In this document: positions 43,308 to 64,000 of the stretch, piece by piece
How positions within the stretch are numbered: position 1 is the first letter of the stretch
Layout of the letters: each line of letters starts with the position of its first letter
Translations under genes and position numbers: made by a program
Notes under the pieces: generated by a model
The model's database searches: none
What the model saw: only the letters and a program-made list of their open reading frames with translations
What the model was told of the DNA's origin: nothing
DNA from: Mycoplasmatota bacterium
GTDB taxonomy: Bacteria > Bacillota_I > Bacilli_A > MAG-NZ
Assembly (NCBI GenBank): GCA_018394315.1
Contig: CP074575.1
Span: 806,001 to 870,000 of the forward strand
Length of the DNA stretch: 64,000 bases
Direction: 5' to 3'

Positions 43308-43787
43308 ATGAATATAAAAATAATATCAGTTGGGAAAATAAAAGAAAGATATTTAATTGACGCAATAAAGGAGTATTCAAAAAGGATAATGCCTTATGCG
43401 AAACTATCTTTCATAGAAGTGAAAGACGAACCAACAAAAGATAATGCTTCACCCAAAGATAATTTAAAGATAAAAGAAAAAGAAGCATTGAGAATATTAA
43501 ATCATATTGACTCAAGAGAATATGTTATAGCATTAGCAATTGAAGGGAAACAGTTAAATTCAATAGAACTAGCAAATAAAATAAAAGAATTACCCACTTA
43601 TGGTAACTCTAATATTGCTTTTATTATAGGAGGATCATTAGGGTTAGATAAAGAGATTCTAGATAGATCAAACTTTAAACTATCATTCTCCAAAATGACT
43701 TTCCCCCATCAATTAATGAAGGTAATACTTTTAGAGCAATTATACAGAGCATTTAGAATAAATAATAATGCGCCGTACCATAAATAG
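43308..43787 (+). CDS. rlmH: 23S rRNA (pseudouridine1915-N3)-methyltransferase (orfX)
   Basis: VGKIKE, FIIGGSLG, SFSKMTFPHQL, EQLYRAF...PYHK. Confidence 0.98.
   Translation: MNIKIISVGKIKERYLIDAIKEYSKRIMPYAKLSFIEVKDEPTKDNASPKDNLKIKEKEALRILNHIDSREYVIALAIEGKQLNSIELANKIKELPTYGNSNIAFIIGGSLGLDKEILDRSNFKLSFSKMTFPHQLMKVILLEQLYRAFRINNNAPYHK
43770..43787 (+). repeat. att-like site S1 (rlmH 3' end)
   Basis: GCGCCGTACCATAAATAG. Confidence 0.9.
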
Positions 43788-43810
43788 TTGCAACCTTTGA
43801 ACGAAAAATT

Positions 43811-43852
43811 CGTGCATTTAGAATTATCAATCGCGCGCCGTACCATAAATAA
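43811..43852 (+). repeat. att-like site S2 (copy of rlmH 3' end; core 43835-43852)
   Basis: CGTGCATTTAGAATTATCAATCGC-GCGCCGTACCATAAATAA reads RAFRIINRAPYHK*. Confidence 0.9.
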
Positions 43853-43863
43853 TAGCATCACAT

Positions 43864-43917
43864 AAACAATATTTTCGGTCTTTTCAATTACAGGTGGATG
43901 AACCATATCATAATAAT
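43864..43917 (+). repeat. att-like site S3 (diverged; core 43900-43917)
   Basis: GAACCATATCATAATAAT; reads KQYFRSFQLQVDEPYHN in register with the RlmH C-terminus. Confidence 0.7.
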
Positions 43918-44066
43918 GAAGTTGTAATAATATATTAATATTAAGAATCCACTTGTTTTAGTAAAAGAAATAGGAATGCAACCTTTAGTTGACACATTTC
44001 CAAGTCACGTTGGTGGTGTTCAACTGGATTTACGTATATCATTTTTATGAAAGAGAGGTACTGAAA

Positions 44067-45059
44067 ATGATTTTAGCTGACAAAATAATGTGTTTGAGAA
44101 AACAAAGAGGTTGGTCTCAAGAAGAACTTGCAAATAAGATGAATGTCTCAAGACAATCTGTTTCAAAGTGGGAGAGCGAGAGTGCTATACCTGAAATGGA
44201 CAAGATAGTGATGTTAAGTGAGATATTTAATGTATCAACAGATTATCTTTTAAAGGAAGATATGAAGGATGATTGCATTGAGAAACAAGAAATAATTCAA
44301 CCCCAGAAAGAGGCCGTAGTTTTGAGGAATTATGAAGTTGAATCGTACTTAGAAAGAGTAAAGAAAAATGCAAAATTAATTGCTTTAGGTGTTTCTTTAT
44401 GTATTTTAGGAGCAACTAGTCTTGTGTTTTTATCAGTAATTGGCGAAACTACCGTGCCCAGTATGTCTGAAGAGCTGGCATTGTCTATTGGATTAGTTGT
44501 GTTGTTTGTATTAGTTGCAATAGCTGTAGCATTATTTATAAAGGCAGGTTCTTTAATGAAACAGTTTGAGTATGTCGAAAGTAAAGAAGTTATTTTAAGT
44601 GGTGCAGATAAACAACATGTAAATGAACAAAAACAATATTATACAAGTAAATATCATTTTGGTATTACATTCGGTGTAGTATTAATGATTCTCGGAGTAT
44701 TACCATTGATAATTGGTAGTTTGTACGATATTTCGGTCTATAATTTGATTCTATTATTAACTTTACTCATGGTAATAGTTACCCTAGCTGTACATATAAT
44801 AATTCGAGTAAGTATTAGAAATGATGGGTACGAAACTCTACTGAATTTAGGAGAATATACGAAAGATAACAAACAGATAGAAAAAGTAACTGAGAAAATT
44901 GGAGGTGTTTATTGGCCAATTGTTGTGGCAATTTACTTATTCTGGAGTTTCTATACGAATGATTGGGGAACTACATGGATCGTGTGGCCTGTAGCGGGTG
45001 TACTATTCGCTGTTGTACCAGGAATAAGCTCGTTCTTGATAGATAAAAACAAAGATTAA
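44067..45059 (+). CDS. XRE-family HTH protein with C-terminal membrane domain
   Basis: LRKQRGWSQEELA..MNVSRQSVSKWE..VSTDYLL plus several TMs; ATG follows GAGAGG. Confidence 0.9.
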   Translation: MILADKIMCLRKQRGWSQEELANKMNVSRQSVSKWESESAIPEMDKIVMLSEIFNVSTDYLLKEDMKDDCIEKQEIIQPQKEAVVLRNYEVESYLERVKKNAKLIALGVSLCILGATSLVFLSVIGETTVPSMSEELALSIGLVVLFVLVAIAVALFIKAGSLMKQFEYVESKEVILSGADKQHVNEQKQYYTSKYHFGITFGVVLMILGVLPLIIGSLYDISVYNLILLLTLLMVIVTLAVHIIIRVSIRNDGYETLLNLGEYTKDNKQIEKVTEKIGGVYWPIVVAIYLFWSFYTNDWGTTWIVWPVAGVLFAVVPGISSFLIDKNKD

Positions 45060-45136: not shown

Positions 45137-45177
45137 ATCTCAGTTAAAAACGTAATAGAGAATGCTATCATAAAAAA
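45137..45177 (+). repeat. att-like site S4 (degenerate core 45160-45177)
   Basis: ATCTCAGTTAAAAACGTAATAGA-GAATGCTATCATAAAAAA; aligns without gaps to S8 and shares its downstream ~105 bp. Confidence 0.75.
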
Positions 45178-45260
45178 TTGTAAAACATGAGCTGAAATAT
45201 CGCTCATATAGAAAACTCACAGGGTGAATATTCACTCTGTTTTAATTGGAGGAAAAAAAA

Positions 45261-45623
45261 ATGAAGGATATAAAGAATGTTTCAAAATTAATAATAGAAG
45301 CAATAGACTTGAATTTAATTGGGAGTAGTAACCCACTGACATTTCATTATTACGAGAATGATAACTTGTGGAATGACTTGCTTTCATTCGTAAATGATGA
45401 AGATATGATGAGGACGATGATTTTCAACAATGATAAGCTTGGGATATCTCCTGTACATACCTATTGTGCAACTTTGAACTGTAATGATAAGCTAAGAGAT
45501 TTTGAAAAAAATTCAATAGGACGCTTTTGGAAATTTGTTTTTGAAACACTGGGTTATAATAATACTAGAAGGGTATATAGGGTAAAATCAGCTATAACAA
45601 ACGGAAAACTATTCACTCAGTAA
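45261..45623 (+). CDS. Hypothetical protein (120 aa)
   Basis: GGAGG RBS and open frame; its first 8 codons recur at 59611. Confidence 0.65.
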   Translation: MKDIKNVSKLIIEAIDLNLIGSSNPLTFHYYENDNLWNDLLSFVNDEDMMRTMIFNNDKLGISPVHTYCATLNCNDKLRDFEKNSIGRFWKFVFETLGYNNTRRVYRVKSAITNGKLFTQ

Positions 45624-46229: not shown

Positions 46230-49200
46230 ATGGAAAGAAATACGTCTATAGTTGAGGCAATGATTATTAATGCTAGAAATCATTTGCTGGACACGTCTTT
46301 TAATAATAGGATGATAAACTCTAAAATTACCCAAAATAAGGGATTATCATTTAATGTTGAAAACTTGGATAAATTTTACGAACTAGTAGCCGGAAATAAC
46401 TCTTTTACTTTTCTTCCATTAGAAAACAAGAAGACTCCTGATTCTAATTTAACGTCAAGTGACAAAGTTAACTTTGAGTACAATAAGAATATTGAAAAGG
46501 TTGGAATTGTTGATGCTGTTTGTATTTTAGACACTACAAAAAAGCCTTCTATCCTTAGTCTGAAGTCGAGTATTGATGAGGGTGATTCAAAGTTAATGTA
46601 CAAAGTTAAAGGTGAAAGTGCATACATAGAATTAGTAGAAAAAATATATGAGGATATTAAAAAGAATTTTACTAAGTATGGTATTGATGAAGATAACGTA
46701 TATAACAAGGATATGTTATTTTCAGGTTTTAAAAAGAAAATTGAAAACGATATAGATAGTATAAAATTATCTCTTTATATTGCATTCTTAAGTATTCTTA
46801 AGAATGAGGGAATACCAAAGGACTATATATTTTTTGGTGGGATAAATAAAAAAAATGAGATTACTCAAGTTAGTAATCTAATTGATAAATTAATTTTTGC
46901 AGGTACTAAGGGGTTCAAGAAAGCTTTAGTTCCTAAGAAGAATAAAAAAGATATCGCAAATTTACCTTCTCAAGTCGCTGAAAATCTTGAAATTGTTTTT
47001 GTCTCTAATATAGATGAGGCAGTTTTATCTGTGTTTGATATGGTTAATTCTGTGGAACATAATGATTTAAGTAATGACTTTATATTGAATAAGAAAAATC
47101 AACCTCAAAAAATATTTTATGTAAATTATAATCAGGATGATTTAAGATCAAGAATGGAAGAAATTTATTTGAATAGTAAACGTCATATTGAGGAACAAGG
47201 AATAAATATCTTATTTCTTTCATTAGGATTTACGCAATGGAGAAGCCCAGTGAAACCAGAGGAGATTATTAACTCACCGTTAATTTTTATACCTGTGAAT
47301 ATTGAGATTAGTAACTATAAGAACATATATAAAATATCTTACTCTAATTCAGAAATAATTCTTAATAAGTCATTAATAAAAAAATTGGAACTTGAGTTTA
47401 ATATAAACTTTGATGAATTATTATTAGATGTTGTTGATGAACGTGACTTTGAAGTATCTAAATATATTGAAAAATTTATGAAAATTACTAGAGAGTCTGG
47501 GAACGATTTTGGAATGGATTCTTCCGCAGTTCACTTAAGTTTCTATTCATATAGTAAATTCTTAATGTATAACGATTTGGATCCAATAAATTGGGAGGAT
47601 GTTCTTCAAGGTGAAGAGGATAATGTATTAACTGATATTTTTGTTAATCATAAATATCACGAGGTAAGCGATGTAGATGATAAAAAATTAATAGATAGTA
47701 ATAGTGAAATAGATATGATAAACAATGTTCTTGATGCGGATTCATCACAACTACTAGCTATCTCTAAAGTAAATCGTGGGAACTCAATTATAATACAAGG
47801 ACCTCCAGGAACTGGTAAATCTCAAACAATTGTGAACTTGATTTCGGAGGGAATAATTCGAAATAAAAAAATCTTATTCATGAGCGAAAAACTTGCTGCG
47901 ATGGATGTTGTATATAGCCGATTAAGATCTCTGAATCTAAGTCACGTTGCATTACAACTTCATTCAGATAAGGTCAATAAATCGCAAGTAATTAACGAGC
48001 TGCAGAAAACATATTATATGAATAAAATAAACGTTAAGAATACGGATTATGATATCGTAAACAAATTAGATGATCTACGTCGAGAGATAAATAACTATTA
48101 TGAATTACTAAATAAAAAATCCTCGAAGTCTAAATTATCTATTGTAGAGGCTTATCGTTTAATCATTAAATTAGAAAATTACTTCAAAATTAACGACATT
48201 GATGTTTATAAACTTGACGTTCATAACGAGTATTTGATGGAGTCTAGCGAAGTTCAGTTTGATAATTTATTAAGTGATCTTGAATCGTTAGAGATTTTTT
48301 ATAACAAATATGGAACAATGAGTGATAATCCTTTAACAAGTATTTCAATTGAAAAGCCTTTATCACATCATGATATGAATAAATATAAAAGCCAAATTAA
48401 TGAGTTGATTAGTGAGCTTACTTCGGTTACTAATAAGATTGCAATTACTAAAGGGAATCAAACTATAATAGACGATTTATCGATATCAAACATTAAGAAG
48501 ATTTTGGCTGTAATAGAAGATCATTCTTCCTTATTAAATAACATTAACAATATTGATTATCCACTCCTAGCAGAAAATAGAGACTTGTTATACGATATTT
48601 TTATGAACTATTGGGATAGTTCAGAAATTAATAACTTAATAAAGAGCAATATATACAATAACTCTAGTGCTGTTGATGAATTGTTATCTTTATTAGAAGC
48701 AATATCTGAAGAAACAGAGTTTCTTAAAAGAAATAATAGTTTTTTAAAACGAAAAAGTCAAAACTTTAAAATACATAAAGATAAGATTGTTAGCAAATAT
48801 TTTAATAAAGATAATGTCAAACTAAGTGATATCGAGACTTCGCTTTCGTGGCTTTATAAAAAATTGTATGTCAAATATATGTTGATTAAAGAAGACGAGC
48901 TATTAAAGAATATTTTTGGTAAAAGAAGTAGAACTGATAACATTAAAATAATTGCTTCGTTATTTCAGTCTTTAGAAGAAATTGTTAAGTTCCTTGAAAA
49001 AGAGTTAAACTTTGAAAATGCTACAATTGAAACTTATTTCAAGTATTTAATGAATTTTGCAACAAATGATTTCAGTAACTTAAATAGTATAGTTGATATA
49101 ATAAACAATGTGACTGAATCACTTGGAATTGATTTGGAAAGTATATTCAGTTCAAATGAATTTATGACATTCAAAATAAGCGAAATAATCGGTGAGTTTG

Positions 49201-51545
49201 GCATTATCAGAGATGGTATGAATACACTTAATGATATTGTAGCCTTAAAAGAGATTAAGAATGGACTTGATGAGAATATTACTAATGAGTACTTGAGAGA
49301 AATCTTACAAAACGAACTATATTCTAAACATATTTCGAAAGTTTTTTCTTATATTAGATACAATAGTATAGTTCAGGAAATAATGAATTATAATTCTGAA
49401 CTAGAGAATTTTAATGCAATGGTTTTTGATCAAAAGATACGAGAGTTCATATATTTGGATAATAGAAATATCCAAGTGAACAATTTGCAAAATACATTGG
49501 ATGCTCATTTTTATAATGTTTACGATATAAGAAAAGATGAAACATTAAGCGTTGAAAATAAAGACGACATAATTAGCTATCTATTGCAAACTTTTAATAG
49601 AAAATACAATGTACCGACTGTAAAAGAATTATTAAAGAAAGCATTTAATCCAATAATTAAGTTGAAACCAGTTTTTATGATGTCACCAATTTCGGTTTCA
49701 CAGTATTTGGAGCCAATTGTCGGGATGTTCGATATTGTTATATTCGATGAAGCTTCACAGATAAAGCCACAGGATGCATTTGGTTCACTTTTGAGAGCCA
49801 AACAAGTTGTTGTTGTTGGAGATGAGAAACAACTTCCACCTACTAACTTTTTTGAGAGTTACTATGGTATAACAGATACGTTTGTTGAAGATGCAGTATC
49901 TAACTATGAAAGTATTCTAACTCTAATAAGAGGAACTGGGGTTCCACTTACCACTCTAAACTGGCACTACCGCAGTAAACACCATAATCTCATTGAAATA
50001 AGCAATAAACATTTTTATGGTGAAGAATTATCTATCTTCCCTTCTAAGTATAAGAGTAATCCGGATTTTGGAATTACATACGAATATGTAGATGGATCTT
50101 TTGATCGTGGAAAAAGTAGAACGAATTCACTTGAGGCAAGAAGAGTTGCCCAAGAAGTTATTAAACATGCAAGAAATAATCCGAACTTATCATTAGGTGT
50201 AGCGACGATAAACATTAACCAAAGGGATTTGATTTTGTCTGAGATTAAGAAAATGAGAGCAAAAGATCATTCGTTAGACGATTTCTTTAGTGAAGATAGG
50301 AATGAACCATTCTTCGTTAAAAACTTAGAAAGTGTTCAAGGGGATGAAAGAGAAGTTATCTTTGTTAGTATTGGATATGCTAAAGATCAAAATGGAAATA
50401 TTATTCAAAATTTTGGTGCTATTAACCATATAGGTGGGGAAAGAAGACTAAATGTTTTGATGACTAGATCAAGACAAAAATGTGTACTGTTCACGGGACT
50501 AAAAGCTGCTGACTTAGAGGTTGATTACAATACAGCAGAAGGGGTAAAGGTCCTTAAAAAATTTCTTGATTTTGCCGAGAGAACCTCAAGCAATATTGAA
50601 ACATATAAAACGAGCGATACGAAGGAATTTTCAATTGAGATTGCTGAGGAATTAAAAAAACATGGCTATAATGTTACCTTCAATGTAGGAAATTCACATT
50701 ACTTCGTTGATATAGCTGTCCATAATCCAAATGATGAATCTGAATATATTTTAGGAATTGAGTTTGATAACTCTACCTATATTCAATCTAGAACTGCAGG
50801 AGAGCGTGAAAGAATTAGAAATAATATTATGAGATCGAAGGGGTGGAATATATATAAGTTATATATCACTTCGTGGTTTAATAATAGAATAAAAGAAATT
50901 GATAACATTTTAGATTACTTATCTCAAATAGAAACTGAAAAGATCGACTATGGGGAAGTTGTTGAGTTTTATGAAGAACAGGTAAATGTAGCTACTAGAT
51001 TCGGATTCAGGCCATATAAGAAATTTGATAAAAGGATTGAGAACATTAAGAAGTTCGTTAAGGAACCAGTTCAAATTCAGAAATATGTCCTAGATCTTAT
51101 TACAGTAGAATCGCCAATCAGATTAAGTACAATAAATTCAAGAATATTAGAAAATTCTTACTTAGAAACTAAGGAGAAAGTATTCAACGGAAGTGTGAAA
51201 AAAGCTCTTTCCAAACTTCAAGAAAGTGGAGTTATCTATAAAGATGAGGGATTTTATTTCATCAGTGATAGATCTCAATTTATTCCTTTTAAAGATAGGA
51301 GAGCAATTGTTGGTTCTTTTACGTTGGAGGATGTACGTGAGGAAGAATATATTCATGCAATTAGAGAAATTACTAAAAACAGTTTTGGTATAGATACTGA
51401 AAATATTGCAACCATTATTTCAAATTATCTTGGATTTGATAACATTAACTTCGATATTCATGATAGAATCGAAAGACTTTCAATTAGATTGGTTAATTCT
51501 GAAACATTATTTATAGATAAGAACAACAATTTACAGCTTAGATAA
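46230..51545 (+). CDS. DUF4011 - SF1 (DNA2/NAM7-like) helicase - Vsr/REase-like nuclease - DUF3320-like protein (Hhe-type anti-phage), with inserted Lon-protease-like domain
   Basis: LLD..N..N and EEQGINILFLSLGF..W...PLIFIPV (DUF4011); DADSSQ, QGPPGTGKSQT, FDEASQ, GDEKQLPPT, HYRS, VQGDER, RRLNV..TR (SF1); VDIAV..GIEFD..RER.R..GW (nuclease). Confidence 0.88.
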   Translation: MERNTSIVEAMIINARNHLLDTSFNNRMINSKITQNKGLSFNVENLDKFYELVAGNNSFTFLPLENKKTPDSNLTSSDKVNFEYNKNIEKVGIVDAVCILDTTKKPSILSLKSSIDEGDSKLMYKVKGESAYIELVEKIYEDIKKNFTKYGIDEDNVYNKDMLFSGFKKKIENDIDSIKLSLYIAFLSILKNEGIPKDYIFFGGINKKNEITQVSNLIDKLIFAGTKGFKKALVPKKNKKDIANLPSQVAENLEIVFVSNIDEAVLSVFDMVNSVEHNDLSNDFILNKKNQPQKIFYVNYNQDDLRSRMEEIYLNSKRHIEEQGINILFLSLGFTQWRSPVKPEEIINSPLIFIPVNIEISNYKNIYKISYSNSEIILNKSLIKKLELEFNINFDELLLDVVDERDFEVSKYIEKFMKITRESGNDFGMDSSAVHLSFYSYSKFLMYNDLDPINWEDVLQGEEDNVLTDIFVNHKYHEVSDVDDKKLIDSNSEIDMINNVLDADSSQLLAISKVNRGNSIIIQGPPGTGKSQTIVNLISEGIIRNKKILFMSEKLAAMDVVYSRLRSLNLSHVALQLHSDKVNKSQVINELQKTYYMNKINVKNTDYDIVNKLDDLRREINNYYELLNKKSSKSKLSIVEAYRLIIKLENYFKINDIDVYKLDVHNEYLMESSEVQFDNLLSDLESLEIFYNKYGTMSDNPLTSISIEKPLSHHDMNKYKSQINELISELTSVTNKIAITKGNQTIIDDLSISNIKKILAVIEDHSSLLNNINNIDYPLLAENRDLLYDIFMNYWDSSEINNLIKSNIYNNSSAVDELLSLLEAISEETEFLKRNNSFLKRKSQNFKIHKDKIVSKYFNKDNVKLSDIETSLSWLYKKLYVKYMLIKEDELLKNIFGKRSRTDNIKIIASLFQSLEEIVKFLEKELNFENATIETYFKYLMNFATNDFSNLNSIVDIINNVTESLGIDLESIFSSNEFMTFKISEIIGEFGIIRDGMNTLNDIVALKEIKNGLDENITNEYLREILQNELYSKHISKVFSYIRYNSIVQEIMNYNSELENFNAMVFDQKIREFIYLDNRNIQVNNLQNTLDAHFYNVYDIRKDETLSVENKDDIISYLLQTFNRKYNVPTVKELLKKAFNPIIKLKPVFMMSPISVSQYLEPIVGMFDIVIFDEASQIKPQDAFGSLLRAKQVVVVGDEKQLPPTNFFESYYGITDTFVEDAVSNYESILTLIRGTGVPLTTLNWHYRSKHHNLIEISNKHFYGEELSIFPSKYKSNPDFGITYEYVDGSFDRGKSRTNSLEARRVAQEVIKHARNNPNLSLGVATININQRDLILSEIKKMRAKDHSLDDFFSEDRNEPFFVKNLESVQGDEREVIFVSIGYAKDQNGNIIQNFGAINHIGGERRLNVLMTRSRQKCVLFTGLKAADLEVDYNTAEGVKVLKKFLDFAERTSSNIETYKTSDTKEFSIEIAEELKKHGYNVTFNVGNSHYFVDIAVHNPNDESEYILGIEFDNSTYIQSRTAGERERIRNNIMRSKGWNIYKLYITSWFNNRIKEIDNILDYLSQIETEKIDYGEVVEFYEEQVNVATRFGFRPYKKFDKRIENIKKFVKEPVQIQKYVLDLITVESPIRLSTINSRILENSYLETKEKVFNGSVKKALSKLQESGVIYKDEGFYFISDRSQFIPFKDRRAIVGSFTLEDVREEEYIHAIREITKNSFGIDTENIATIISNYLGFDNINFDIHDRIERLSIRLVNSETLFIDKNNNLQLR

Positions 51546-51650: not shown

Positions 51651-51691
51651 CTTACAATCAAGAACGTTACAGCGCGCCGTATCATAAATAA
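51651..51691 (+). repeat. att-like site S5 (core 51674-51691)
   Basis: CTTACAATCAAGAACGTTACAGC-GCGCCGTATCATAAATAA. Confidence 0.9.
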
Positions 51692-51754: not shown

Positions 51755-51934
51755 ATGATTAATAATGCTATTGGTATTAACTTAGTAGGTAAAAAAAAAC
51801 CTGCAGTTCATCATCACTATATTGGAATTAATGAAGAGGAAGAAAAAGTAGTACATAAGATATATGAACTATTTAATGCTGGATACGGATATATAGCAAC
51901 TGCTATAAATTGTCAAGGATGGACTTCAAGCTGA
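51755..51934 (+). pseudogene. Fragment of a large serine recombinase (recombinase domain, Ccr-like)
   Basis: 51827-51934 reads INEEEEKVVHKIYELFNAGYGYIATAINCQGWTSS*, matching the I.EEEA.VV..IF.L...G.G...IA..LN..G pattern. Confidence 0.65.
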
Positions 51935-52086
51935 TTTATAGATTGATATAGAATTTACACTGAATCGTGGTGTATGAGTATGATGGAAACATTAGTGATG
52001 TTTCCTTTTCTTGTGGTGAGGTGCTATAATTTGGTAAAGAAAGAAGAATGTTCATCGAACTTGTAAAAAAACGGGAGGAAGATATA

Positions 52087-52962
52087 GTGTATAGAGAAAT
52101 GAAAAAAGCAGATTTGACCTTAGTGAATGGTATGCTAGGAAGAATAAATAGCTCAGCTAAAAAGGTTTTTAATCAAGCATATGAAGATGGGAATTTAGTT
52201 AGTTGTTTAATGTACGATGATAAGAATGATAGAGGAGTCTTTACAATTGTAGAGGGTCCTAATTATTATGCTTTGCAAGTATCTTTTGACAAGGATGTTA
52301 GTAATTATAAAGTTATAAAGGTCATTCATGAAGGATTGGACAAAATTATAAAAGTTAGAGGTTCCAAAGATATATATTTAAACATTAATGGATATAATCC
52401 TTCAATAATAAATTATTTTAGAAATTACAACTTTACTCAAGATTCGTTGGGATTTGAATATAGCTTTTCCACTTCATCAGAGACTATAGATGCAATTTCT
52501 AACTTTAAGGTTGAGGAGGGGTTAACCTTCAAGGGTTTTGAAGAAGAGAATGCTCACAATTATATAGAACTTTTAGATGATGCTTTTAGGCAACTTGATA
52601 TTGATAGTAATGAAGAGCAGGATCGATATAGAAAGAGCGGTCAAAAATTTCTTTCATGGCTAAGAAAGGTAGATGAGAAAAAGAATTTTGGCGCTTTGTG
52701 GAGCAACGTTGATTTGGTTGGAGTATACATCTTAAATGATGATTGTATACATACAATAGCAGTGAATCCAAAATATGAGGGAAAGGGATTTGGAAATCAA
52801 ATAATGAAATATTGCTTAAAAAATTTGATTTTGAACAAAAAATATAAAGAGGTTTATCTACAAGTACTTTTCGAAAATAAAAGAGCTCAGAAATTTTATA
52901 TTAAAAACGGATTCGAAGTAAGAGGATATTACTGTGAGAATACATATGTGTCAAAAATGTAA
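52087..52962 (+). CDS. GNAT-family acetyltransferase
   Basis: AVNPKYEGKGFG, N.RAQKFYIKNGF; GTG start after GGGAGG. Confidence 0.88.
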   Translation: MYREMKKADLTLVNGMLGRINSSAKKVFNQAYEDGNLVSCLMYDDKNDRGVFTIVEGPNYYALQVSFDKDVSNYKVIKVIHEGLDKIIKVRGSKDIYLNINGYNPSIINYFRNYNFTQDSLGFEYSFSTSSETIDAISNFKVEEGLTFKGFEEENAHNYIELLDDAFRQLDIDSNEEQDRYRKSGQKFLSWLRKVDEKKNFGALWSNVDLVGVYILNDDCIHTIAVNPKYEGKGFGNQIMKYCLKNLILNKKYKEVYLQVLFENKRAQKFYIKNGFEVRGYYCENTYVSKM

Positions 52963-52966
52963 ACAA

Positions 52967-53007
52967 GTTGCAGCTGAAAACGTTATAACGCGCCTTATCA
53001 TAAATAA
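52967..53007 (+). repeat. att-like site S6 (core 52990-53007)
   Basis: GTTGCAGCTGAAAACGTTATAAC-GCGCCTTATCATAAATAA; starts 4 bp after the GNAT stop. Confidence 0.9.
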
Positions 53008-53413: not shown

Positions 53414-53432
53414 GTTGAGGAATTTATAACAT

Positions 53433-53630: not shown

Positions 53631-53644
53631 GTAAAATATATAAC

Positions 53645-54032: not shown

Positions 54033-54816
54033 ATGGCTTCAAATAGAATAGTAATAAAGGTAGGAACTTCTTCCTTGGCATATTCTAATGGCAAATTAAA
54101 TTTACGTCAAATTGAAAAACTATGTCAGGTTATAACTGACTTAAGTAATAGGGGTAAGGAAATCGTTCTAATTACTAGTGGTGCTATTGGCGCTGGAATT
54201 GGTAGATTAGGGTTAAATGATAAACCGAAAAAATTAGAGATGAAACAAGCTACCGCAGCAATAGGACAAGCTTACTTAATGCAAATATACCAACGTTTCT
54301 TTGCTAAATATAGTCAACTATGCGCTCAAATGTTATTAACTAAAGAAATTGTCGATAATCATCTTAAAAGGGAAAACGTTGTAAGAACATTTGAAGAACT
54401 ATTTAAGATAGGTGTTATACCAATAGTAAATGAAAATGATTCTGTTTCTACAGACGAAATAATTGGAGATGTTTTTTCGGATAATGATAATTTGTCGTCA
54501 GTGGTTGCTGTTATAAATAAAGCGGATTTGCTCATTATTTTAAGTAACATTGACGGTGTTTATAAAAAAGTAAATGGTAATCTAAGTAACAATGTTATTA
54601 ACAATGTTGATATTATTACTGAGGAAATATATGGTTATGTATCTAATGAAAAGTCTTCACTTGGCACAGGAGGAATGAGTTCAAAACTAAACGCGGTAAA
54701 ATATGCTATGGACAACTCAGTAGATTCAATTATATGTAATAGTAAGGATTTAAATATTATATATGATTGCTTAGAGGGAAAAATAGTTGGAACTTTTTTT
54801 AAGGCAGGAAAAGAAG

Positions 54817-54827
<11 letters not shown>
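54033..54827 (+). CDS. proB: Glutamate 5-kinase (no PUA domain)
   Basis: VIKVGTSSL, SGAIGAG, PIVNENDSV, DND.LS, GTGGM.SKL. Confidence 0.96.
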
Positions 54828-56058
<1,231 letters not shown>

Positions 56059-56066
56059 GGAATTAA

Positions 56067-56870
56067 ATGAAAAACATTGGCTTTATCGGTTGTGGGAATA
56101 TCGCAACTGCAATGATTGCTGGTATAAGTAAATCAACTTTATTTAAAGAGATTAATATTTATGCTTATGATATTGATCAAGATAAACTTCAAATGATGAA
56201 AAATGATTATGGAATAAACCTTGCTAACAGCAATATTGATTTAGTGAAGGCGGTTGAAGTTGTTGTTCTAGCGGTTAAACCGAATATTTATGAAACAGTA
56301 ACTAACGAAATTAAGAATATTATTTCTAAAGATACAATAATAGTTGTTATTGCTGCAGGAATCTCTCTTGATAATATTAAAATGATGTTTAATAGAGAAT
56401 TAAAATATGTAAGAGCAATGCCGAATACTCCTGCACTAGTTGGAGAAGGGATGACGGCATTATGTTATTCTGAGTTACTTAAGGATAATGAAAAGAAATT
56501 AGTTGCTGACATTTTCAGTTGTTTTGGAAAATATCTAGAACTTTCTGAGGATAAATTTAGTGCATTCACATCAGTATGTGGATCGTCGCCAGCATTTGTT
56601 TATATGTTTATAGAAGCATTAGCGGATGGGGGGGTATTGCTAGGGTTACAACGACATCAAATATATGATATGGTTTCTCAAGCAATTTTAGGATCAGCGA
56701 AAATGGTTCTAGAAACTAAAGAACATCCAGGAAAACTAAAGGATAATGTTTGCTCACCTGGAGGAACAGCTATTGAAGGTGTTGCTGAACTTGAAAGAAA
56801 CAATTTTAGGAATGCTGTAATTAGTGCTGTAATTAAAACCGGAGAGAAATCAAGAACAATAAATAATTAA
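56067..56870 (+). CDS. proC: Pyrroline-5-carboxylate reductase
   Basis: IGFIGCGN, LAVKP, RAMPNTP, GSSPAF, VCSPGGT. Confidence 0.97.
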   Translation: MKNIGFIGCGNIATAMIAGISKSTLFKEINIYAYDIDQDKLQMMKNDYGINLANSNIDLVKAVEVVVLAVKPNIYETVTNEIKNIISKDTIIVVIAAGISLDNIKMMFNRELKYVRAMPNTPALVGEGMTALCYSELLKDNEKKLVADIFSCFGKYLELSEDKFSAFTSVCGSSPAFVYMFIEALADGGVLLGLQRHQIYDMVSQAILGSAKMVLETKEHPGKLKDNVCSPGGTAIEGVAELERNNFRNAVISAVIKTGEKSRTINN

Positions 56871-56962: not shown

Positions 56963-56984
56963 CTTTTTAATTAATCATTAGTTA

Positions 56985-57267
56985 AAAGCTTTGATAAGAA
57001 ATAGTATTCATTTCAATTCTTAAAAAGAGAGTTGCCGTTTGGTGAGAGGCACATAAGAATCTATGGAGAACACATCTTTGAGCTGTGAATTCAAACGTTT
57101 ATCTAGTAGAGTTCATCGGTATCCTTGCAACCGTTATATTGCTAGAGTATAAGCATTTTGCCGTACTCGAAAAGGTTAATATCGTGAGATATTAATAAAA
57201 TAGAAGTGGGACCACGTGAGTATAGCTTTCGTCTTCTAGTATTGACTAGAGAGGGAAGCTTTTTTTA
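56985..57267 (+). ncRNA. T-box riboswitch, probable histidine specifier
   Basis: AGTA, AGAGAG and GGTGAGA motifs; GAA-CAC (57071-57073); antiterminator AAGTGGGACCACG; terminator ending GGAAGC plus T tract. Confidence 0.85.
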
Positions 57268-57312
57268 TTTCCTTTTGACTCATGATTAAATAAAGAAAAG
57301 GGAGATAGAAAA

Positions 57313-58107
57313 ATGAAAAAATTATTATTAATATTATCGCTAATGTTTGTAGTTACATTAACAGCATGTTCTAAAGAGGAAAAAATCGATTTGAAAGAAA
57401 TCGAAGAAAGAGGATATATCATCATGGGATTAGATGATACATTTGCCCCAATGGGTTTCAGAGATGAGTCAAATGAAATCGTTGGTTTTGATGTAGATTT
57501 AGCTAAAGAGTTATTTGGATCTACGGGTATTAAACTTAGGTTTCAGCCAATCGACTGGGCAATGAAAGAAACTGAATTAAACAATGGTAACATTGATATG
57601 ATTTGGAATGGTTATACGATTACACAAGAGAGAAAAGAAAAGGTTAACTTTTCAACACCATATATAAGTAGCAGACAAGTGATTATCACTCTAATGGATA
57701 GTGAAATAGATAAAATTAGCGACCTTGAAGGTAAAGTATTAGCTACACAAACTGGTTCTAGTTCATTGAATGCAATTACTGAATCAGAAGAATTAATGAG
57801 TTTTGTAAGTGAAGATGAAATTATTTTGTTTGGGTCATATAACGAAGCATTTATTGATCTTAAAGCAAGAAGAATAAATGCAATTGTTGCTGATGAAATT
57901 CTAGTTCGCTATTATATGAGTTCAAATGAAGAAACTGAATATAAAATTTTAGATGATGATTTAGGTTATGATGAATTCGGAATCGGATTAAGAAAAGAGT
58001 CAACAGATTTATTAGAATTAATTAACAACTTGTTAGATGAGATGAAACAAGACAAAAGAGCTGCTAAAATTTCCGTTAAGTGGTTTGCTGAAAATATAGT
58101 CGAATGA
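57313..58107 (+). CDS. Polar amino acid ABC transporter substrate-binding lipoprotein (likely His)
   Basis: Lipobox LTAC; DDTFAPMGF, GFDVDLA, IWNGYTIT.ER. Confidence 0.92.
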   Translation: MKKLLLILSLMFVVTLTACSKEEKIDLKEIEERGYIIMGLDDTFAPMGFRDESNEIVGFDVDLAKELFGSTGIKLRFQPIDWAMKETELNNGNIDMIWNGYTITQERKEKVNFSTPYISSRQVIITLMDSEIDKISDLEGKVLATQTGSSSLNAITESEELMSFVSEDEIILFGSYNEAFIDLKARRINAIVADEILVRYYMSSNEETEYKILDDDLGYDEFGIGLRKESTDLLELINNLLDEMKQDKRAAKISVKWFAENIVE

Positions 58108-58108
58108 T

Positions 58109-58750
58109 ATGGATTACTATTTAACTTTAATTAATCAATTATTTCTAGGTGCATTAGTAACACTTAAGTTCTTTATCTTAATTGGAATTGTGTCACTGTT
58201 CTTTGGCCTATTAGTATCGATACTTGGTCTTGTTTCAAATAGTTTCATTAAAAGAATAATAAATATATATGTACTTATTATGAGAGGTACCCCATTACTT
58301 TTACAACTTATTACTATTTATTTTGGCTTACCTATAATTGGTTTAAGCTTAAGTAGAACTGTCGCTGTGTTAATTGCATTTGCACTAAATTACTCAGCAT
58401 ACTTTAGTGAAATATTTCGAGGTGGATTCGAAAGCATCGATAAAGGACAGTTCGAAGCTGCGTTTGTACTTGGAATGAAAAAAAGAGATACATATAAGAA
58501 AATAGTGTTACCACAAGTGATTAAGAGAGTATTACCTTCAATTTCAAATGAGATAATAACTCTTGTAAAAGATACTTCTTTAATTTATGTTGTTGGATTA
58601 GGAGAATTATTAAGAATGGGTAAAATAGCCTCAAATAGAGATGCTTCACTAGTTCCATTGTTGTTCGTTGGATTGATATATCTCTTAATTATCTATGCAT
58701 TAACTAAATTATTAAAGAGATGGGAGCGCTCGTATGGATACTTTGAGTAA
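58109..58750 (+). CDS. Amino acid ABC transporter permease
   Basis: RGTPLLLQL, AYFSEIFRGG..SIDKGQFEAA, LVKDTSL. Confidence 0.95.
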   Translation: MDYYLTLINQLFLGALVTLKFFILIGIVSLFFGLLVSILGLVSNSFIKRIINIYVLIMRGTPLLLQLITIYFGLPIIGLSLSRTVAVLIAFALNYSAYFSEIFRGGFESIDKGQFEAAFVLGMKKRDTYKKIVLPQVIKRVLPSISNEIITLVKDTSLIYVVGLGELLRMGKIASNRDASLVPLLFVGLIYLLIIYALTKLLKRWERSYGYFE

Positions 58751-59399
58751 TATTGTTGAAATAAATAACTTAACAAAAAAGTTTGGCGAAAAGATTATCT
58801 TTAAAGAGCTCTCAATCAATTTCAAGGAAAAGGAAATAACAGTTATACTTGGTCCATCAGGTATTGGTAAAACTACTCTTTTGAGGTGTATATGTGGACT
58901 AGAGACAGTAAGTGATGGAGAAATAACAATAAATAATCAACCATACATAAAGTTTGGAGAAGTAGTAGACAAAAAAAATACACAGAAAGTTTTAAATGAT
59001 GTAGGCCTTGTTTTTCAAGACTTTAATTTGTTTCCTCATTTAACAGTGTACGAAAATATTAGAATTATAGTAAAAGATGATAAACTAGTTAAATACTGGC
59101 TAACTGAACTAGGAATGTTTGAAAAAAAAGATCTATATCCATTCGAGTTATCAGGGGGACAAAAACAGCGTGTAGCAATAGCTAGAGCGTTAATATTAAA
59201 ACCAAAATTACTGTGTTTTGATGAACCAACTTCAAATCTAGACTCATCTTTAAAAATGAACATAGCAAGCATTATTAAAAAGATTTCAAAAACTGGAACT
59301 TCAGTAATTATCATTACACATGACGAGTTATTCGCTGATGCTGTTGCTGATAATATAATAAAGTTTACTGACCTTTCTACTAATGTTAGTTGTAGATGA
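58734..59399 (+). CDS. Amino acid ABC transporter ATP-binding protein
   Basis: GPSGIGKT, LSGGQKQR, FDEPTS. Confidence 0.95.
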   Translation: MDTLSNIVEINNLTKKFGEKIIFKELSINFKEKEITVILGPSGIGKTTLLRCICGLETVSDGEITINNQPYIKFGEVVDKKNTQKVLNDVGLVFQDFNLFPHLTVYENIRIIVKDDKLVKYWLTELGMFEKKDLYPFELSGGQKQRVAIARALILKPKLLCFDEPTSNLDSSLKMNIASIIKKISKTGTSVIIITHDELFADAVADNIIKFTDLSTNVSCR

Positions 59400-59487: not shown

Positions 59488-59528
59488 GTTGCACCTGAAA
59501 ACGTTACAAAGCGCCGTATCATAAATAA
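59488..59528 (+). repeat. att-like site S8 (core 59511-59528)
   Basis: GTTGCACCTGAAAACGTTACAAA-GCGCCGTATCATAAATAA. Confidence 0.9.
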
Positions 59529-59637
59529 TTGTAAAACATGAGCAGAAATATCGCTTGTATAGAAGAACGAACAGAGTGAATATTCACTCTGTTTTCATTG
59601 GAGGAAACAAATGAAAGATATAAAGAATGTTTCATGA
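59529..59637 (+). repeat. Copy of 45178-45284: two hairpins, RBS and truncated ORF start MKDIKNVS*
   Basis: Direct alignment; includes the perfect 22-bp palindrome ACAGAGTGAATATTCACTCTGT. Confidence 0.88.
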
Positions 59638-59766
59638 TATTAGAAGCCTAAATTGAGAGAACTGATGAGAACGCTTTGTCGAATTGGGTCGGTTAATAAT
59701 AATATATTAGCAACGTGCATAAATGTGAATATGCTATAATTTTATTAAGAGTGAGGTGGATTTCTT

Positions 59767-60723
59767 ATGAGAAGAATAAGTCTGTTATTGATTATATTAT
59801 TAGTGTTGCTGTTAGGGTGTAATGAACAGAGTAACAAAGATAATGATGTACTAAGTGAATATCCTACTAAAGAAGAAGTATCTATTGAAGAACTAAGAGC
59901 TGCACAATATAAGATGATAGAATACGGAGATGAACTCTTAGATCGAGGTGTGTTCATCTCTTCATCGGGGGTTGATGAGCGTAATAGTATGTTACATATA
60001 GAAGTTTTTGACTTGAATGACGATAAAGCTGAAGTGATTTATGAGTATATTGATAAAGAACTAGTGACCTTGGAGAATGTATATCATTCTGAGATTAAAA
60101 CAGTGTTGAATGTAGTTGATGGTAGAGTGTTAGTAATTGACAATGAAAATTCAGCAGATATGACCTGGTATTCATATGATGAAGAGAAACTCAATGATCT
60201 TGGATTGAAAGCAGGTAATGTTATAGAAATTATTAGTACTGGAATGATACTTACATCAGACCCAGGCCAAGGATTCGCTATGGAGATAAAATTAACTGAT
60301 GTAAAATCAATCGAACCAAAATCCATTGAAGGGAAGTTAATTGGGGTGATGCTCCCTAGTTATTCCGCTAGGTTGCTAGTAAATGATGAGTATGTTTATT
60401 TTAGATCATTTTTTAATGTTAATGCTGAATTGATAGGTGATATTGTTGAGATGTACTATATTGGAGAGCAAGAAATAGATGGAAAAAGTGTGCTAAATGT
60501 TCATCGCTTTAATGTTATAGAAGAACATGATGCTTACGAAGGATATGTTGAGTCAGTTCATGGTGATCAAATTGTATTCAATAATTCGGAAGAGCAAATT
60601 ATTTTTAATATGGGTGCTTTTAATTCTAAAGATTTTGAAGTAGGTTTGGTTGTTTATATTGAATTCCAAGAGGTTGATGGTGTAAAAACAATTACTAACT
60701 TAATTTCACCGGAAAGCAACTAA
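59767..60723 (+). CDS. Hypothetical lipoprotein (OB-fold/YobA-like repeats)
   Basis: Lipobox LLGC; G..I.I...G.ILTSDPGQ. Confidence 0.7.
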   Translation: MRRISLLLIILLVLLLGCNEQSNKDNDVLSEYPTKEEVSIEELRAAQYKMIEYGDELLDRGVFISSSGVDERNSMLHIEVFDLNDDKAEVIYEYIDKELVTLENVYHSEIKTVLNVVDGRVLVIDNENSADMTWYSYDEEKLNDLGLKAGNVIEIISTGMILTSDPGQGFAMEIKLTDVKSIEPKSIEGKLIGVMLPSYSARLLVNDEYVYFRSFFNVNAELIGDIVEMYYIGEQEIDGKSVLNVHRFNVIEEHDAYEGYVESVHGDQIVFNNSEEQIIFNMGAFNSKDFEVGLVVYIEFQEVDGVKTITNLISPESN

Positions 60724-60997
60724 TGATAGGGCTGATTGTATTTCTTACTTATCAATCCAAGGGAATATCAAGCGGTAAGAATTGTGCGTTATAACCCGCA
60801 CCATTGTTTTCGTTTAGGTAGATTGATAATCCGCTGATTATCACTTATGTGTTTAATTCAATAAAAATGAAAGCAAAAGTATTGTTTGTTATGTACAAAA
60901 ACGACCCTTAACATAAGTATGTGAGGATATTAAAATATGCTGAAATTTGACCTTTTTCATAGTATAATAAATACGTATTCAAGAATGGTGTGGGAAT

Positions 60998-61438
60998 ATG
61001 AACATTATGGTGGAAAAGTTAGAAAAAGTATTTGGAATGAATAATGAGTTTCTTTGTAATATTGAAGAGGTTGACCTTAAATTACGTATAGATGGAATTA
61101 GGTCAAATACTATTGCTAGTCAAATCGCTTGTGTAGCAGGGGGGCGTGATTCATATGCAAAATGTATTCTTGAAGATGAGCCTTTTAGTTGGCGCCCTGA
61201 TTTTTCATATGATGATAGATATGAATATGATAAATTAATCAATCATTTAGGAAATAGAAGTAGTTCGTTAATTGCAGCACTTAAGTCTATTAAAAATTTT
61301 TCTCTAAATCAGGAAAGTCTAATCATTGATCTTATTAGTCATGAGTATTTACATCAAGGGCAAATTATTAGATATTTTTATGCGAATGAATTAGAAATGC
61401 CTAACTCAGTGAAATCGTTTTGGCACCTTGAAGATTAA
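60998..61438 (+). CDS. DinB/YfiT-like four-helix protein
   Basis: NTIASQ..C..G.R.SY and HEYLHQGQ. Confidence 0.65.
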   Translation: MNIMVEKLEKVFGMNNEFLCNIEEVDLKLRIDGIRSNTIASQIACVAGGRDSYAKCILEDEPFSWRPDFSYDDRYEYDKLINHLGNRSSSLIAALKSIKNFSLNQESLIIDLISHEYLHQGQIIRYFYANELEMPNSVKSFWHLED

Positions 61439-61465
61439 TTATATAATAGTTTGGGGAATAGTCTT

Positions 61466-62344
61466 ATGATTATTAAACAGAATGCTAAATCATTATTAAT
61501 AAAGAGTAATGGTATAGAGAGTGTGTTTGGAAATGACTTCTACATGAACATTTACAGAGGTTGTAGTCATAATTGTATTTACTGTGATTCGAGAAGTAGT
61601 TGTTATCGCGTAGAAAACTTCGATAAAGACGTCATTGTAAAAGATAATGCAGTTGAATTATTGGAGAAAGAATTAGTTAGCAAAAGAAAAAAAGGTGTAA
61701 TTAGTTTAAGTGGAGCAATGTCTGATTGTTATATGCATATTGAAAAGAAGCTTGAGTTAACTAGAGGTTGTTTAAATATACTAGATAAATATAATTATCC
61801 TGTAATGATACATACGAAAAGTGATTTGGTATTACGAGATATTGATATTTTAGAAAAAATAAACAATAAAACAAATGCAAATGTTTTGTTTACAATAACT
61901 ACAATTAATGATGAGCATGCTAGAATTATTGAACCTAATGCCCCATTACCAAGCAAGAGGTTTAAAGCATTAAAATCATTGAGTGATAAAGGAATTACCA
62001 CAGGAATTGCAATTTGGCCAATCATTCCTTTTATAACAGATCAAGAAAAAAATATTAACGAACTAATTAAGTATGCACATCTTGCGGGTTGTAAATATGT
62101 GATTTTTGGAGATGCGCTTACATTGAGAGGTAAGCAAAGAGAGTATTTTTATAAGAAGTTAGATGAAGCAGGGAGTGATTTAGCCAAAAAGTATAAACGA
62201 CTATATGGCGATAGTTATGTATGTAAATCAAAGAACATTGAAAAGATTAAAAAAATAATAAGAGATCTTTGTGAGGAATGTGGACTTGAGACTAAAGTTT
62301 CTTATTATCAGGTAAAAGAACCCAGCCAGATTAGTTTATTCTAA
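61466..62344 (+). CDS. Radical SAM protein (SplB/Rv2578c-like)
   Basis: NIYRGCSHNCIYCD, TKS.LVLRD.D, EPNAP...R; clamp-binding-like QISLF end. Confidence 0.9.
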   Translation: MIIKQNAKSLLIKSNGIESVFGNDFYMNIYRGCSHNCIYCDSRSSCYRVENFDKDVIVKDNAVELLEKELVSKRKKGVISLSGAMSDCYMHIEKKLELTRGCLNILDKYNYPVMIHTKSDLVLRDIDILEKINNKTNANVLFTITTINDEHARIIEPNAPLPSKRFKALKSLSDKGITTGIAIWPIIPFITDQEKNINELIKYAHLAGCKYVIFGDALTLRGKQREYFYKKLDEAGSDLAKKYKRLYGDSYVCKSKNIEKIKKIIRDLCEECGLETKVSYYQVKEPSQISLF

Positions 62345-62365
62345 ATTTGCGTTGAATTTTTGGAT

Positions 62366-62485
62366 AAGGAGTATCAAGGGTTAAGAATACAATTTGAATA
62401 CTGCTATGCCGTATTTTTTTATTTTAGATGACCCAGATGGTAATACACTTATAATTACAGGTGGACACGAGGAAAAATATAATTA
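62366..62485 (+). pseudogene. VOC/glyoxalase-family C-terminal relic
   Basis: Reads ...LDDPDGNTLIITGGHEEKYN*, with no intact 5' part. Confidence 0.5.
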
Positions 62486-62568
62486 ATCTTAACTTTAAGG
62501 ATATACCATAAATGATTTCAACAATGATAGCTGAGCATAACTATAATACAGTACACTATGGAGGAAAA

Positions 62569-63429
62569 ATGAAAATTTTAGTTTTAGGAGGAACAAGATT
62601 TGTAGGTATTCATTTAGTAAATGAATTACTTAAGAAATCTTATGATATTACTATTGCTAATAGAGGAACAACAAAAGATGAGTTTGGCCATGAAGTTAAG
62701 AGAATTGTATTTGATAGGTATGATTCTAAAAGTATCAAAGATAAACTTACTGATCAATATGATGTTATTTATGACACATTAGCTTATGCATCAAATGATG
62801 TTAAAGTATTGCTTGATAATATTAAATGTAATAAATATATAATGGTATCATCTGCTGCTGTGTATGAAGATTATATAAATGTATCTGAAGATAAGTTTCA
62901 GCCAGAAAAAAACAAGTTAATATGGTGTAATCGTGGTGATTATAGTTATTCGAAAATCAAAAGACAAGCTGAGACAGCAATTTATCAAGAATATTCATCG
63001 GTAAATGCAATTACAGTTAGATATCCTTTTGTAGTAGGAAATGATGATTACACAAATCGATTAAAGTTTTATGTTGAGCACATAATAAATGGATTACCAA
63101 TGTATATTGATAACTTAAATGATCAATTGTGCTTTATTAGTTCAAATGAGTGTGGGAACGCATTAGCAGAACTAGCAAGTAAAAATTATGTTGGACCACT
63201 TAACTTTTCAAATAGTGGTGCAATTTCAATAAAAGAAATTATTAACTATATTGAAAGAAAAACAGGTAAGATAGCTGAATATGCAAAAAATGGGGACGCA
63301 GGACCTTATAATGGAAAGTATGTTAGTAGTCTGAATTTGTCAGAGTGTAATAAATTAAACATTGATTTTAGTGATGTAAGAGAATGGATATTTAATCTGT
63401 TAGATGAAATTATTGAGGAAGTAATTTAG
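62569..63429 (+). CDS. NAD-dependent epimerase/dehydratase family protein
   Basis: MKILVLGGTRFVG..NRG, SSAAVY, YSKIK; ATG follows GGAGG. Confidence 0.9.
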   Translation: MKILVLGGTRFVGIHLVNELLKKSYDITIANRGTTKDEFGHEVKRIVFDRYDSKSIKDKLTDQYDVIYDTLAYASNDVKVLLDNIKCNKYIMVSSAAVYEDYINVSEDKFQPEKNKLIWCNRGDYSYSKIKRQAETAIYQEYSSVNAITVRYPFVVGNDDYTNRLKFYVEHIINGLPMYIDNLNDQLCFISSNECGNALAELASKNYVGPLNFSNSGAISIKEIINYIERKTGKIAEYAKNGDAGPYNGKYVSSLNLSECNKLNIDFSDVREWIFNLLDEIIEEVI

Positions 63430-63604
63430 TAACTGGTATACTGAAATTGCAATAGATATGATACAAATTAGGTCTAAGACGAGATTCAAGATGGATATTC
63501 AAGAAATTAAGAGCTTTGGGGTGAAAATTCGAGCCACCAGGTGGCGAATAGGCCTAGTTATCAGTAAATAAACAGGAGTAATACTATATTTGAAGGAGAA
63601 GTAA

Positions 63605-64000
63605 ATGATTATTTTAATTGGAGGAGCAAGTTGTACTGGGAAGACCTTAATGGCGAATAATTTAATGAAAAAGTATGCTATACCATATTTCTCACTGGAT
63701 TGGCTTAAAATGGGTCTCTATAGGAGTAATGGTGATATTAGATTTAACCCTAGTGACGATGATAAAAAGATAGAATCGTATTTAAGACCAATAGTTAGTG
63801 AGATGATTAAGACTTGTATTGAGAACAACCAAAGTTTAATTATTGAAGGTTGCTATATACTTCCATCAATATTAGATGATTTTGATGATGAGTACTTAAA
63901 TAAAATAATCTCAGTATTTCTTAACTTATCAGAGAATTACTTGATGAATAATTTTGAAGATGGAGTTATTAAAAATAGAAGTGTGATTGAATCTCGCAAC
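63605..64000 (+). CDS. P-loop kinase (2-phosphoglycerate/adenylate kinase-like), runs off the window
   Basis: MIILIGGASCTGKTLMA...PYFSLDWLKMGLYRS...LIIEGCY; AAGGAG RBS. Confidence 0.85.
   Translation, partial: MIILIGGASCTGKTLMANNLMKKYAIPYFSLDWLKMGLYRSNGDIRFNPSDDDKKIESYLRPIVSEMIKTCIENNQSLIIEGCYILPSILDDFDDEYLNKIISVFLNLSENYLMNNFEDGVIKNRSVIESRN

Follow-up and report, generated by a model that had tools for sequence, protein, structure and literature searches.

Attachment sites behind rlmH in a Mycoplasmatota bacterium bound a probable stack of stripped SCC-like islands

Behind the gene rlmH of a Mycoplasmatota bacterium (GenBank assembly GCA_018394315.1, contig CP074575.1), copies of the last 18 bp of the gene recur and divide the following DNA into small units, which raises the question of what kind of system assembles genes at this site. 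The window analyzed here, a stretch of 64,000 nucleotides, corresponds to positions 806001-870000 of the single contig of the genome, which has a size of 2,165,257 bp and a G + C content of 31%. A preliminary description had read the region as an integron-like cassette array, whose units are captured or shuffled by a serine recombinase acting in trans. The present analysis indicates that the array is probably a stack of stripped islands of the staphylococcal cassette chromosome (SCC) type, moved in trans by a visiting enzyme similar to the Ccr recombinases of these elements.

Attachment sites at the end of rlmH

The array is anchored by rlmH (43308..43787, + strand; PF02590, E 1e-57), which encodes a SPOUT methyltransferase and whose last codons form the attachment (att) site of the host, so that the first core (43770..43787) consists of the last 18 bp of the gene. 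All eight cores listed in the preliminary description were recovered, on the + strand and between genes. Relative to the end of rlmH they contain no mismatch at 43770, one at 43835..43852, two at 51674..51691 and 59511..59528, three at 52990..53007, and five at 53456..53473, and the cores at 43900..43917 and 45160..45177 differ in more than six positions. Five of the eight lie within three mismatches of the rlmH end, a similarity reached at just 7 positions in the genome. Because the sites at 43900, 45160, and 53456 remained weak in a leave-one-out test on the core alone, a 68-bp model including the arms was trained on 45 internal sites from relatives only, with 15 bits or more taken as a strong match. 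It found 11 strong matches genome-wide, nine of which are located on the + strand within the 26 kb that extend from window position 43770 to 70135. These represent seven of the eight named cores and two sites past the end of the window, one strong (70135) and one weaker but probable (64281). The other two strong matches lie at a second locus near 266 kb. The motif thus is not spread over the genome, whereas a similar density throughout had been named beforehand as refuting the cassette interpretation, and the absence of copies upstream of rlmH was confirmed for window positions 1-43,700 at a threshold of 12 bits. The site at 43900 scores −10.6 bits due to its poor arms and was accepted because homology to a complete genome of the same family (G004) starts exactly there.

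The two halves of the sites form imperfect inverted repeats. Over 65 internal sites taken from the host and 19 of its relatives, the symmetry is highest at positions 1 and 2 of the 18-bp core, with 10.9 of 26 positions matching compared to 5.8–9.0 at 14 other offsets; within the window sites, where the core is a copy of rlmH, it is weak (5–12 of 26). The central dinucleotide is GA in 70 and GC in eight of 85 sites from the host and its relatives. The host itself has GC in 5 of its 10 sites (43770 at rlmH, 43835, 51674, 52990, and 59511), GA at 43900, 45160, and 70135, and AA at 53456. For SCC, the half-sites have been described as a degenerate inverted repeat around a central GA with a TATCATAA core (PMC13739063). 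Co-oriented sites with a TATCATAA-type core and inverted half-sites around a central GA, the first of them at the 3′ end of rlmH, thus support the view that these are SCC-type att sites anchored at this gene. A zinc-domain motif is reported to lie 5 bp nearer to the center in attB than in attP (PMC3783163), and the profile score of the present sites was 1.01 at a shift of 5, versus 1.12 at 6 and 1.63 at −1.

The arms differ along the array. At 43770, a left arm encoded by rlmH is followed by an element-type right arm starting with TTGCAAC. The site at 59511, which has the best score of all, has element-type arms on both sides, and those at 45160 and 53456 combine a degenerate core with good arms. 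Two gene-less units of 65 bp separate the first three cores: one (43788..43834; repeat family D4) contains an element-type right arm and then an rlmH-like left arm, and in the other (43853..43899) the left arm is atypical. The left arm of the site at 43835 can be read as a different rlmH allele, which would encode AFRIINR where the host has AFRINNN.

A different interpretation, that the repeats are a regulatory or termination motif resembling the rlmH end by chance, would agree with their intergenic position and uniform orientation. It is hardly credible, however, and largely refuted by the confinement of the repeats to the array and one other mobile locus, their near absence where rlmH carries no core, and the observation (see below) that they bound an intact recombinase element and mark breaks of homology. 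The orientation of the cargo, by comparison, is uninformative: all 18 long open reading frames (ORFs) of the array are on the + strand, as had been noted, but the adjacent DNA shows an equal leading-strand bias (69 of 72, 32 of 35, and 74 of 81 long ORFs).

Shared units and their spread among relatives

The DNA behind rlmH was surveyed in 41 other genomes (1.4–79 kb each, with the first 30 kb scored); these genomes were chosen for long contigs and closeness rather than at random, and the kin among them are not independent. A core was found at the rlmH end in 30 of the 41 (28 placed by script, one in G001 with a broken reading frame, and one in G097 with read-through). At least one internal core followed in 19 of these 30 regions and at least two in 10, whereas among the 11 rlmH genes without a core just one was followed by an internal match, which was single and weak. 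Altogether 52 internal matches were on the rlmH strand and one on the opposite strand. The highest number among the relatives, 15 sites in 34 kb, was found in G004, a circular count since the core model of the survey was trained on this genome. With a strict att pattern, matches were obtained in just two of the eight genomes of the host's order. The units of the relatives (n = 56) mostly measure 1–5 kb, with a median of 2.5 kb; 24 do not exceed 2 kb and 45 do not exceed 5 kb. Gene-less units of 56–91 bp between cores recur in several genomes (including G049), possibly representing empty sites or portable docking sites. Many metagenome-derived contigs end no more than a few hundred bases from the rlmH stop codon, as would be expected were the region variable within populations. 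In G063, G064, G121, and G144, part of the rlmH 3′ end occurs a second time at a distance from the gene; the copy in G063 lies approximately 50 kb downstream and ends in a core.

Comparison of 25 array regions showed that individual units occupy different positions in different genomes and that their homology breaks at the cores, in agreement with what the preliminary description had predicted for modules that move. The unit at 43900-45187, which encodes an XRE-family helix-turn-helix and membrane protein (44067..45059), shares 87% identity with unit 13 of the array in G004, located about 31 kb down from rlmH, but is the first gene-bearing unit in the host. The homology starts at the GA of the site at 43900 and stops just past the core at 45160. 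Likewise, the unit encoding a GNAT acetyltransferase, third in the host, shares 81% identity with the unit that comes first after rlmH in G001, a member of the same genus, and the homology stops at a core in both genomes. Among all shared stretches of at least 250 bp, 5 of 16 end at cores in both genomes, and 4 of 6 do so among those with at least 80% identity.

These breaks also bear on the question of whether the sites are fossils, with the units now moving solely by homologous recombination or transformation and no site-specific enzyme acting in trans. Several degenerate sites, mixed central dinucleotides, and the rarity of intact recombinases (6 of 147 genomes of the neighboring order, none of the 8 of the host's order) would fit such a scenario. 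Repeats that are short and moderately similar are poor substrates of RecA, however, and the present repeats are of this type. Moreover, homology breaks at the central dinucleotide and not randomly within the repeat, and the arms are conserved across orders, which makes a purely homologous mode of transfer very improbable.

A candidate recombinase clade and its relics in the array

In line with the preliminary description, which had seen no intact recombinase in the region, none was found: both PF00239 and PF07508 lacked matches in the genome (one contig, 93.6% complete), and the array contains neither ccrAB nor ccrC but only a relic. Fragments of unrelated large serine recombinases, in both cases C-terminal, are located at G000:C1:1082960-1083703 and 100732-100950; one of them is 77% identical to an enzyme of G004. 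The proposed search for Ccr-like recombinases beyond the window led to a candidate in the neighboring order, where combined searching for PF07508 and rlmH revealed a clade of large serine recombinases of about 530 amino acids. The elements carrying them share the gene order small ORF, SSB, a 126-amino-acid backbone gene, RadC, recombinase, XRE regulator, and cargo. Clade members are 34% identical to proteins named CcrB and score 297–310 bits on the CcrB model (about 300 on the CcrB and CcrC models, which have a cut-off of 900), compared to 106–142 bits on these models for four other local recombinases. A quick phylogenetic tree of 44 sequences (30 of 109 homologs and 14 fetched enzymes) recovered the clade as one group (support 100) that joins the CcrB-like enzymes, apart from 11 other local recombinases (support 92, not starred). 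Named sources of members are Haloplasma contractile and Candidatus Xianfuyuplasma coldseepsis, with further members from Izemoplasmatales or Mycoplasmatota assemblies among the matches listed; one member is on a contig with DUF960.

The clade is linked to the att sites by G183, in which an intact 10.6-kb element with its recombinase lies between two cores directly at rlmH; this is the sole genome with an intact recombinase between its sites in the surveyed regions. In G062 and G114, the element follows a core with an rlmH-like arm, and in G140 and G144 it occupies other, degenerate sites. A Ccr-like remnant in G004:C1 near 2094400 follows a gene that, judged by eye, is tRNA-like, and the clade may thus also have used a tRNA-adjacent site. 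A related recombinase gene of Alkalihalophilus marmarensis (L207 9977-11581) ends in an rlmH-type core (codons GEPYHK-stop), and a core on the opposite strand was seen at a recombinase gene end in Clostridium sp. 19966 (L206 near 11594). Other enzymes were considered as movers and rejected. G004 contains four full or near-full recombinases, which do not belong to the Ccr-like clade according to the tree (the two that were scanned reached 132–134 bits on the CcrB model) and have no strong cores at their ends. In G102, a recombinase gene at a distance of 30 kb from rlmH encodes a different type, and the rlmH gene there is without a core. Among 80 metagenome rlmH loci, most of them short or distant, no recombinase was found within 10 kb with a profile of three G004 enzymes, and when species genomes were scanned with the alignment of the recombinases, the matches listed were mostly unrelated enzymes.

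Traces of the same type of element are present in two units of the host array. The recombinase relic recognized in the preliminary description is real: the best match of the clade profile in the genome lies at 51713-51931 (E 2e-5), and the 140 bp following it match, at 75% identity, the 3′ end of the clade remnant in G004 and the DNA downstream of it. The relic (51773..52005, + strand) is therefore an internally deleted Ccr-like gene, in which a piece of the recombinase domain (model positions 164-215) is joined to the 3′ end of the gene and a terminator-like hairpin (51985-52005) closes the stretch; it was not recognized with Pfam alone. The second trace is the gene formerly called hypothetical (45246..45623, + strand), which has no Pfam family and gave no usable match in the ESM Atlas but corresponds to the backbone gene of the recombinase-bearing elements (E 1.5e-22), being 33–40% identical to the gene adjoining SSB and RadC. 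It has two significant matches in the genome, both within the array, the second following the probable core at 64281. At least two units thus represent stripped elements. A Ccr-like enzyme acting in trans accordingly remains the likely mover, as had been suggested for a serine recombinase in general, but the accompanying notion of captured bare genes does not hold for these units.

We propose that a single Ccr-like large serine recombinase would arrive on an element of 10–20 kb, cut at a GA or GC dinucleotide located 18 bp ahead of the rlmH end, and integrate circles there. Each integration would restore the rlmH end and displace older units outward, leaving their junctions with element-type arms on both sides; deletion would subsequently strip recombinase and backbone but spare the unit ends, reducing most islands to a single cargo gene or a few, and a recombinase visiting later could excise, move, and re-insert the stripped units. 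Serine recombinases require matching central dinucleotides, and clean excision is therefore predicted for GA-GA pairs (units 43900-45160 and 45160-70135) and GC-GC pairs (51674-52990, 52990-59511, and 43835-51674), whereas the AA site at 53456 is probably dead. Several of these steps have precedents, as CcrA/B recombine attP with attP (PMC3783163), ccr-less tandem cassettes of staphylococci are excised by Ccr in trans (PMC11470126), and newer elements are assumed to displace older ones from rlmH (PMC13739063). That enzymes of this clade made the sites at hand, in which order the units would have arrived, and whether they are mobile at present are inferred from this scheme.

Several observations weigh against the proposal. 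The match of the relic is short (approximately 50 amino acids), and its E value of 2e-5 is genome-wide. No intact clade member was found in the eight genomes of the host's order. Intact elements carry CCTAAAA in the left and CCC/CCT-AACTGCG in the right arm, whereas the arrays mostly have TTGCAAC, so that the enzyme was not found between two TTGCAAC arms. Of the shared stretches, 11 of 16 do not end at cores (internal or contig-limited matches), no core follows the helicase gene in the approximately 150 bp of contig available in G001, and all comparisons span species or genera and not strains, with kin that are not independent. Finally, the assembled sequences revealed neither excision nor a circle nor an empty site.

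The main competitor is an integron-like capture process, in which the recombinase would make cassettes from chromosomal genes via look-alike sites and minimal cassettes would be the normal mobile unit instead of a product of decay. The small units of the relatives, the dense packing of sites in G004, the frequent position of cores about 25–135 bp after a stop codon, and the occurrence of the clade at degenerate sites off rlmH can all be accommodated by this process. It could also explain why G002 and G005 have proBA in an ordinary context without cores and why most units contain no backbone relic. The element relics in two host units and the lack of a resident recombinase argue against it, as does the expression architecture: one unit holds two T-box leaders, and terminator-like hairpins are found at the left ends of units, which speaks against transcription from a shared array promoter. 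Promoter matches as such were at the level of chance (75 versus 67.6 expected). Furthermore, no gene was found at a chromosomal home with one real and one look-alike site. Capture is thus an unlikely origin of the array, and stripped SCC-like islands moved in trans are the preferred interpretation.

Cargo, secondary arrays, and relation to known systems

The contents of the modules given in the preliminary description were confirmed from gene content and domain matches; all functions named here are putative annotations. The unit starting at 45160 has a terminator-like hairpin at its left end (45219..45240), followed by the backbone gene and a large gene (46230..51545) predicted to encode a DUF4011, superfamily 1 helicase, and MTES_1575 nuclease protein. 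Its best PADLOC model is PDC-S37, a candidate defense system, followed by Hhe, and a copy with 89% identity is present in G001. An unusual addition is a Lon_C-like segment at residues 80-265 (E 3e-13), which is also BrxL-like. Behind the recombinase relic follows the GNAT acetyltransferase gene (52048..52962). The next unit (53008..53455) is decayed, 466 bp long in total, and its pieces recur further along the array (119 bp at 63367-63485 with 92% identity, others near the window-equivalent positions 69060-69204). A T-box leader (53639..53825; Rfam RF00230) then precedes proB-proA-proC (54033..56870), the proA of which is the sole proA match of the genome at E ≤ 1e-20, and a second T-box leader precedes the genes of a polar amino-acid ABC transporter comprising binding protein, permease, and ATPase (together 56982..59399), the histidine specificity given in the preliminary description being putative. 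Directly after the core at 59511, a truncated copy of the left end of the 45160 unit (59529..59647; 86% identity over 137 bp) contains the arm, a near copy of the hairpin, and the start of the backbone gene. The distal unit (59767..64000) encodes a lipoprotein-like protein, a 146-amino-acid protein, a radical SAM protein, an NAD-dependent epimerase, and an AAA_18 kinase-like protein and runs on to the probable core at 64281 and the clear core at 70135. All of these features are on the + strand. The genome also contains a Spo0A C-terminal domain, which fits, but does not prove, the earlier designation of the organism as a spore-former.

Arrays also exist away from rlmH. In the same genome, a second cassette-like array follows tRNA-His (G000:C1:251597-269963, − strand), in which the tRNA end and eight further copies of it bound small gene units. 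Within it (L004 9521-10443, − strand), a GNAT gene lies between two rlmH-type cores, the first of which has an rlmH-like left arm, representing an rlmH-type unit inside another array. In G004, a second cluster of five rlmH-type cores (G004:C1:2016307-2023838, − strand) is located about 0.9 Mb from rlmH and includes a 71-bp gene-less unit as well as two rlmH-like arms. Upstream of this cluster are two elements with genes that appear primase/helicase-like and polymerase-like (from the starts of the ORFs) and with other serine recombinases. In a wider reading, the rlmH end of these basal, little-studied lineages related to Bacilli would be equivalent to an integron that operates with a serine recombinase: cassettes of 1–3 genes would cross genera, a rare Ccr-like enzyme would shuffle them and mint new ones from ordinary genes via look-alike sites, and portable foreign rlmH ends would seed new arrays, with the tRNA-His locus of the host and the second cluster of G004 as examples. 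This is a tentative idea that we regard as rather doubtful.

The resemblance to integrons, including clusters of attC sites that lack an integrase (CALINs), consists of an array of small units with one repeated recombination site each and probably growth at one end. However, integrons recombine attC hairpins, whereas the sites described here are copies of a host gene end and of the double-stranded type used by serine recombinases, and here the units carry their own leaders and terminators. No tyrosine integron integrase lies beside the array, as none of the 10 PF00589 matches of the genome is within 150 kb. In view of the lack of a resident integrase, the leaders and terminators of the units, a co-orientation explained by leading-strand bias, and the presence of stripped elements, the parallel to integrons drawn in the preliminary description is considered overstated.

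Closer counterparts are found at rlmH itself. Tandem SCC and ccr-less cassettes of staphylococci (ACME, COMER, and defense cassettes; PMC11470126) share the anchor gene, the TATCATAA-type core, and several co-oriented att sites, and the ccr-less ones also resemble the present units in having no recombinase of their own, in carrying defense cargo (a candidate in the present case), and in being moved by a recombinase located elsewhere, which is probable here. Att-bounded ccr-less units in tandem at rlmH, as in ACME-type pseudo-SCC, are present here as well. In staphylococci, however, ccr resides in one cassette of the same array, whereas none was found in the host genome; the units in the window range from 65 bp to 6.5 kb (median in relatives 2.5 kb) compared to approximately 24 kb for type IVa SCCmec (PMC11470126); and the candidate enzyme belongs to a separate clade, 34% identical to CcrB. 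The enterococcal elements named ECC (PMC6222049) are alike in their position at the rlmH 3′ end, dyad att sites of about 50 bp with a TATCATAA core, multiple right-end sites, recombinase-free remnants, and variable cargo. They are defined by ccrAB(Ent), have fewer than five att matches per genome, and extend over 32 kb in one example, whereas the present array has 9–10 sites (that of G004 has 15), and the candidate element carries just one recombinase gene together with a RadC/SSB backbone. SCC-like composite islands of non-staphylococcal Bacillota (PMC10061031) also have more than one rlmH-end repeat downstream of rlmH, but encode a Pol-SSB primase, a helicase, and a recombinase, none of which is encoded by the units in the window; the ORF listing of the rlmH element in G183 contains no such large replication ORF either.

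The array thus works like a composite SCC island but is neither an SCC by the ccr criterion nor an integron. Earlier publications have described tandem cassettes without recombinase at rlmH in staphylococci (PMC11470126), elements with multiple right-end sites and remnants in enterococci (PMC6222049), and composite islands in other Bacillota (PMC10061031), and the concept is therefore less new than the preliminary description implied. For the present lineage, no description of such arrays was found in the literature searched, which included few subscription papers and no supplements. New are the lineage, the small size of the units, the rarity of the enzyme, and the secondary arrays off rlmH. 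The docking site of SCC, which is mainly known for its methicillin-resistance islands, is thereby extended to a distant and mostly uncultured group, in which the system appears reduced to many very small units that persist although the recombinase is usually absent. A candidate clade of enzymes, together with dozens of pairs of natural sites, opens two questions to experiment. One is the way in which attP-like junctions are recombined with one another by Ccr-type enzymes; the other is whether cassettes without a recombinase represent products of decay or a functioning system of gene capture. In addition, the arrays may serve as a ready source of candidate defense and stress genes.

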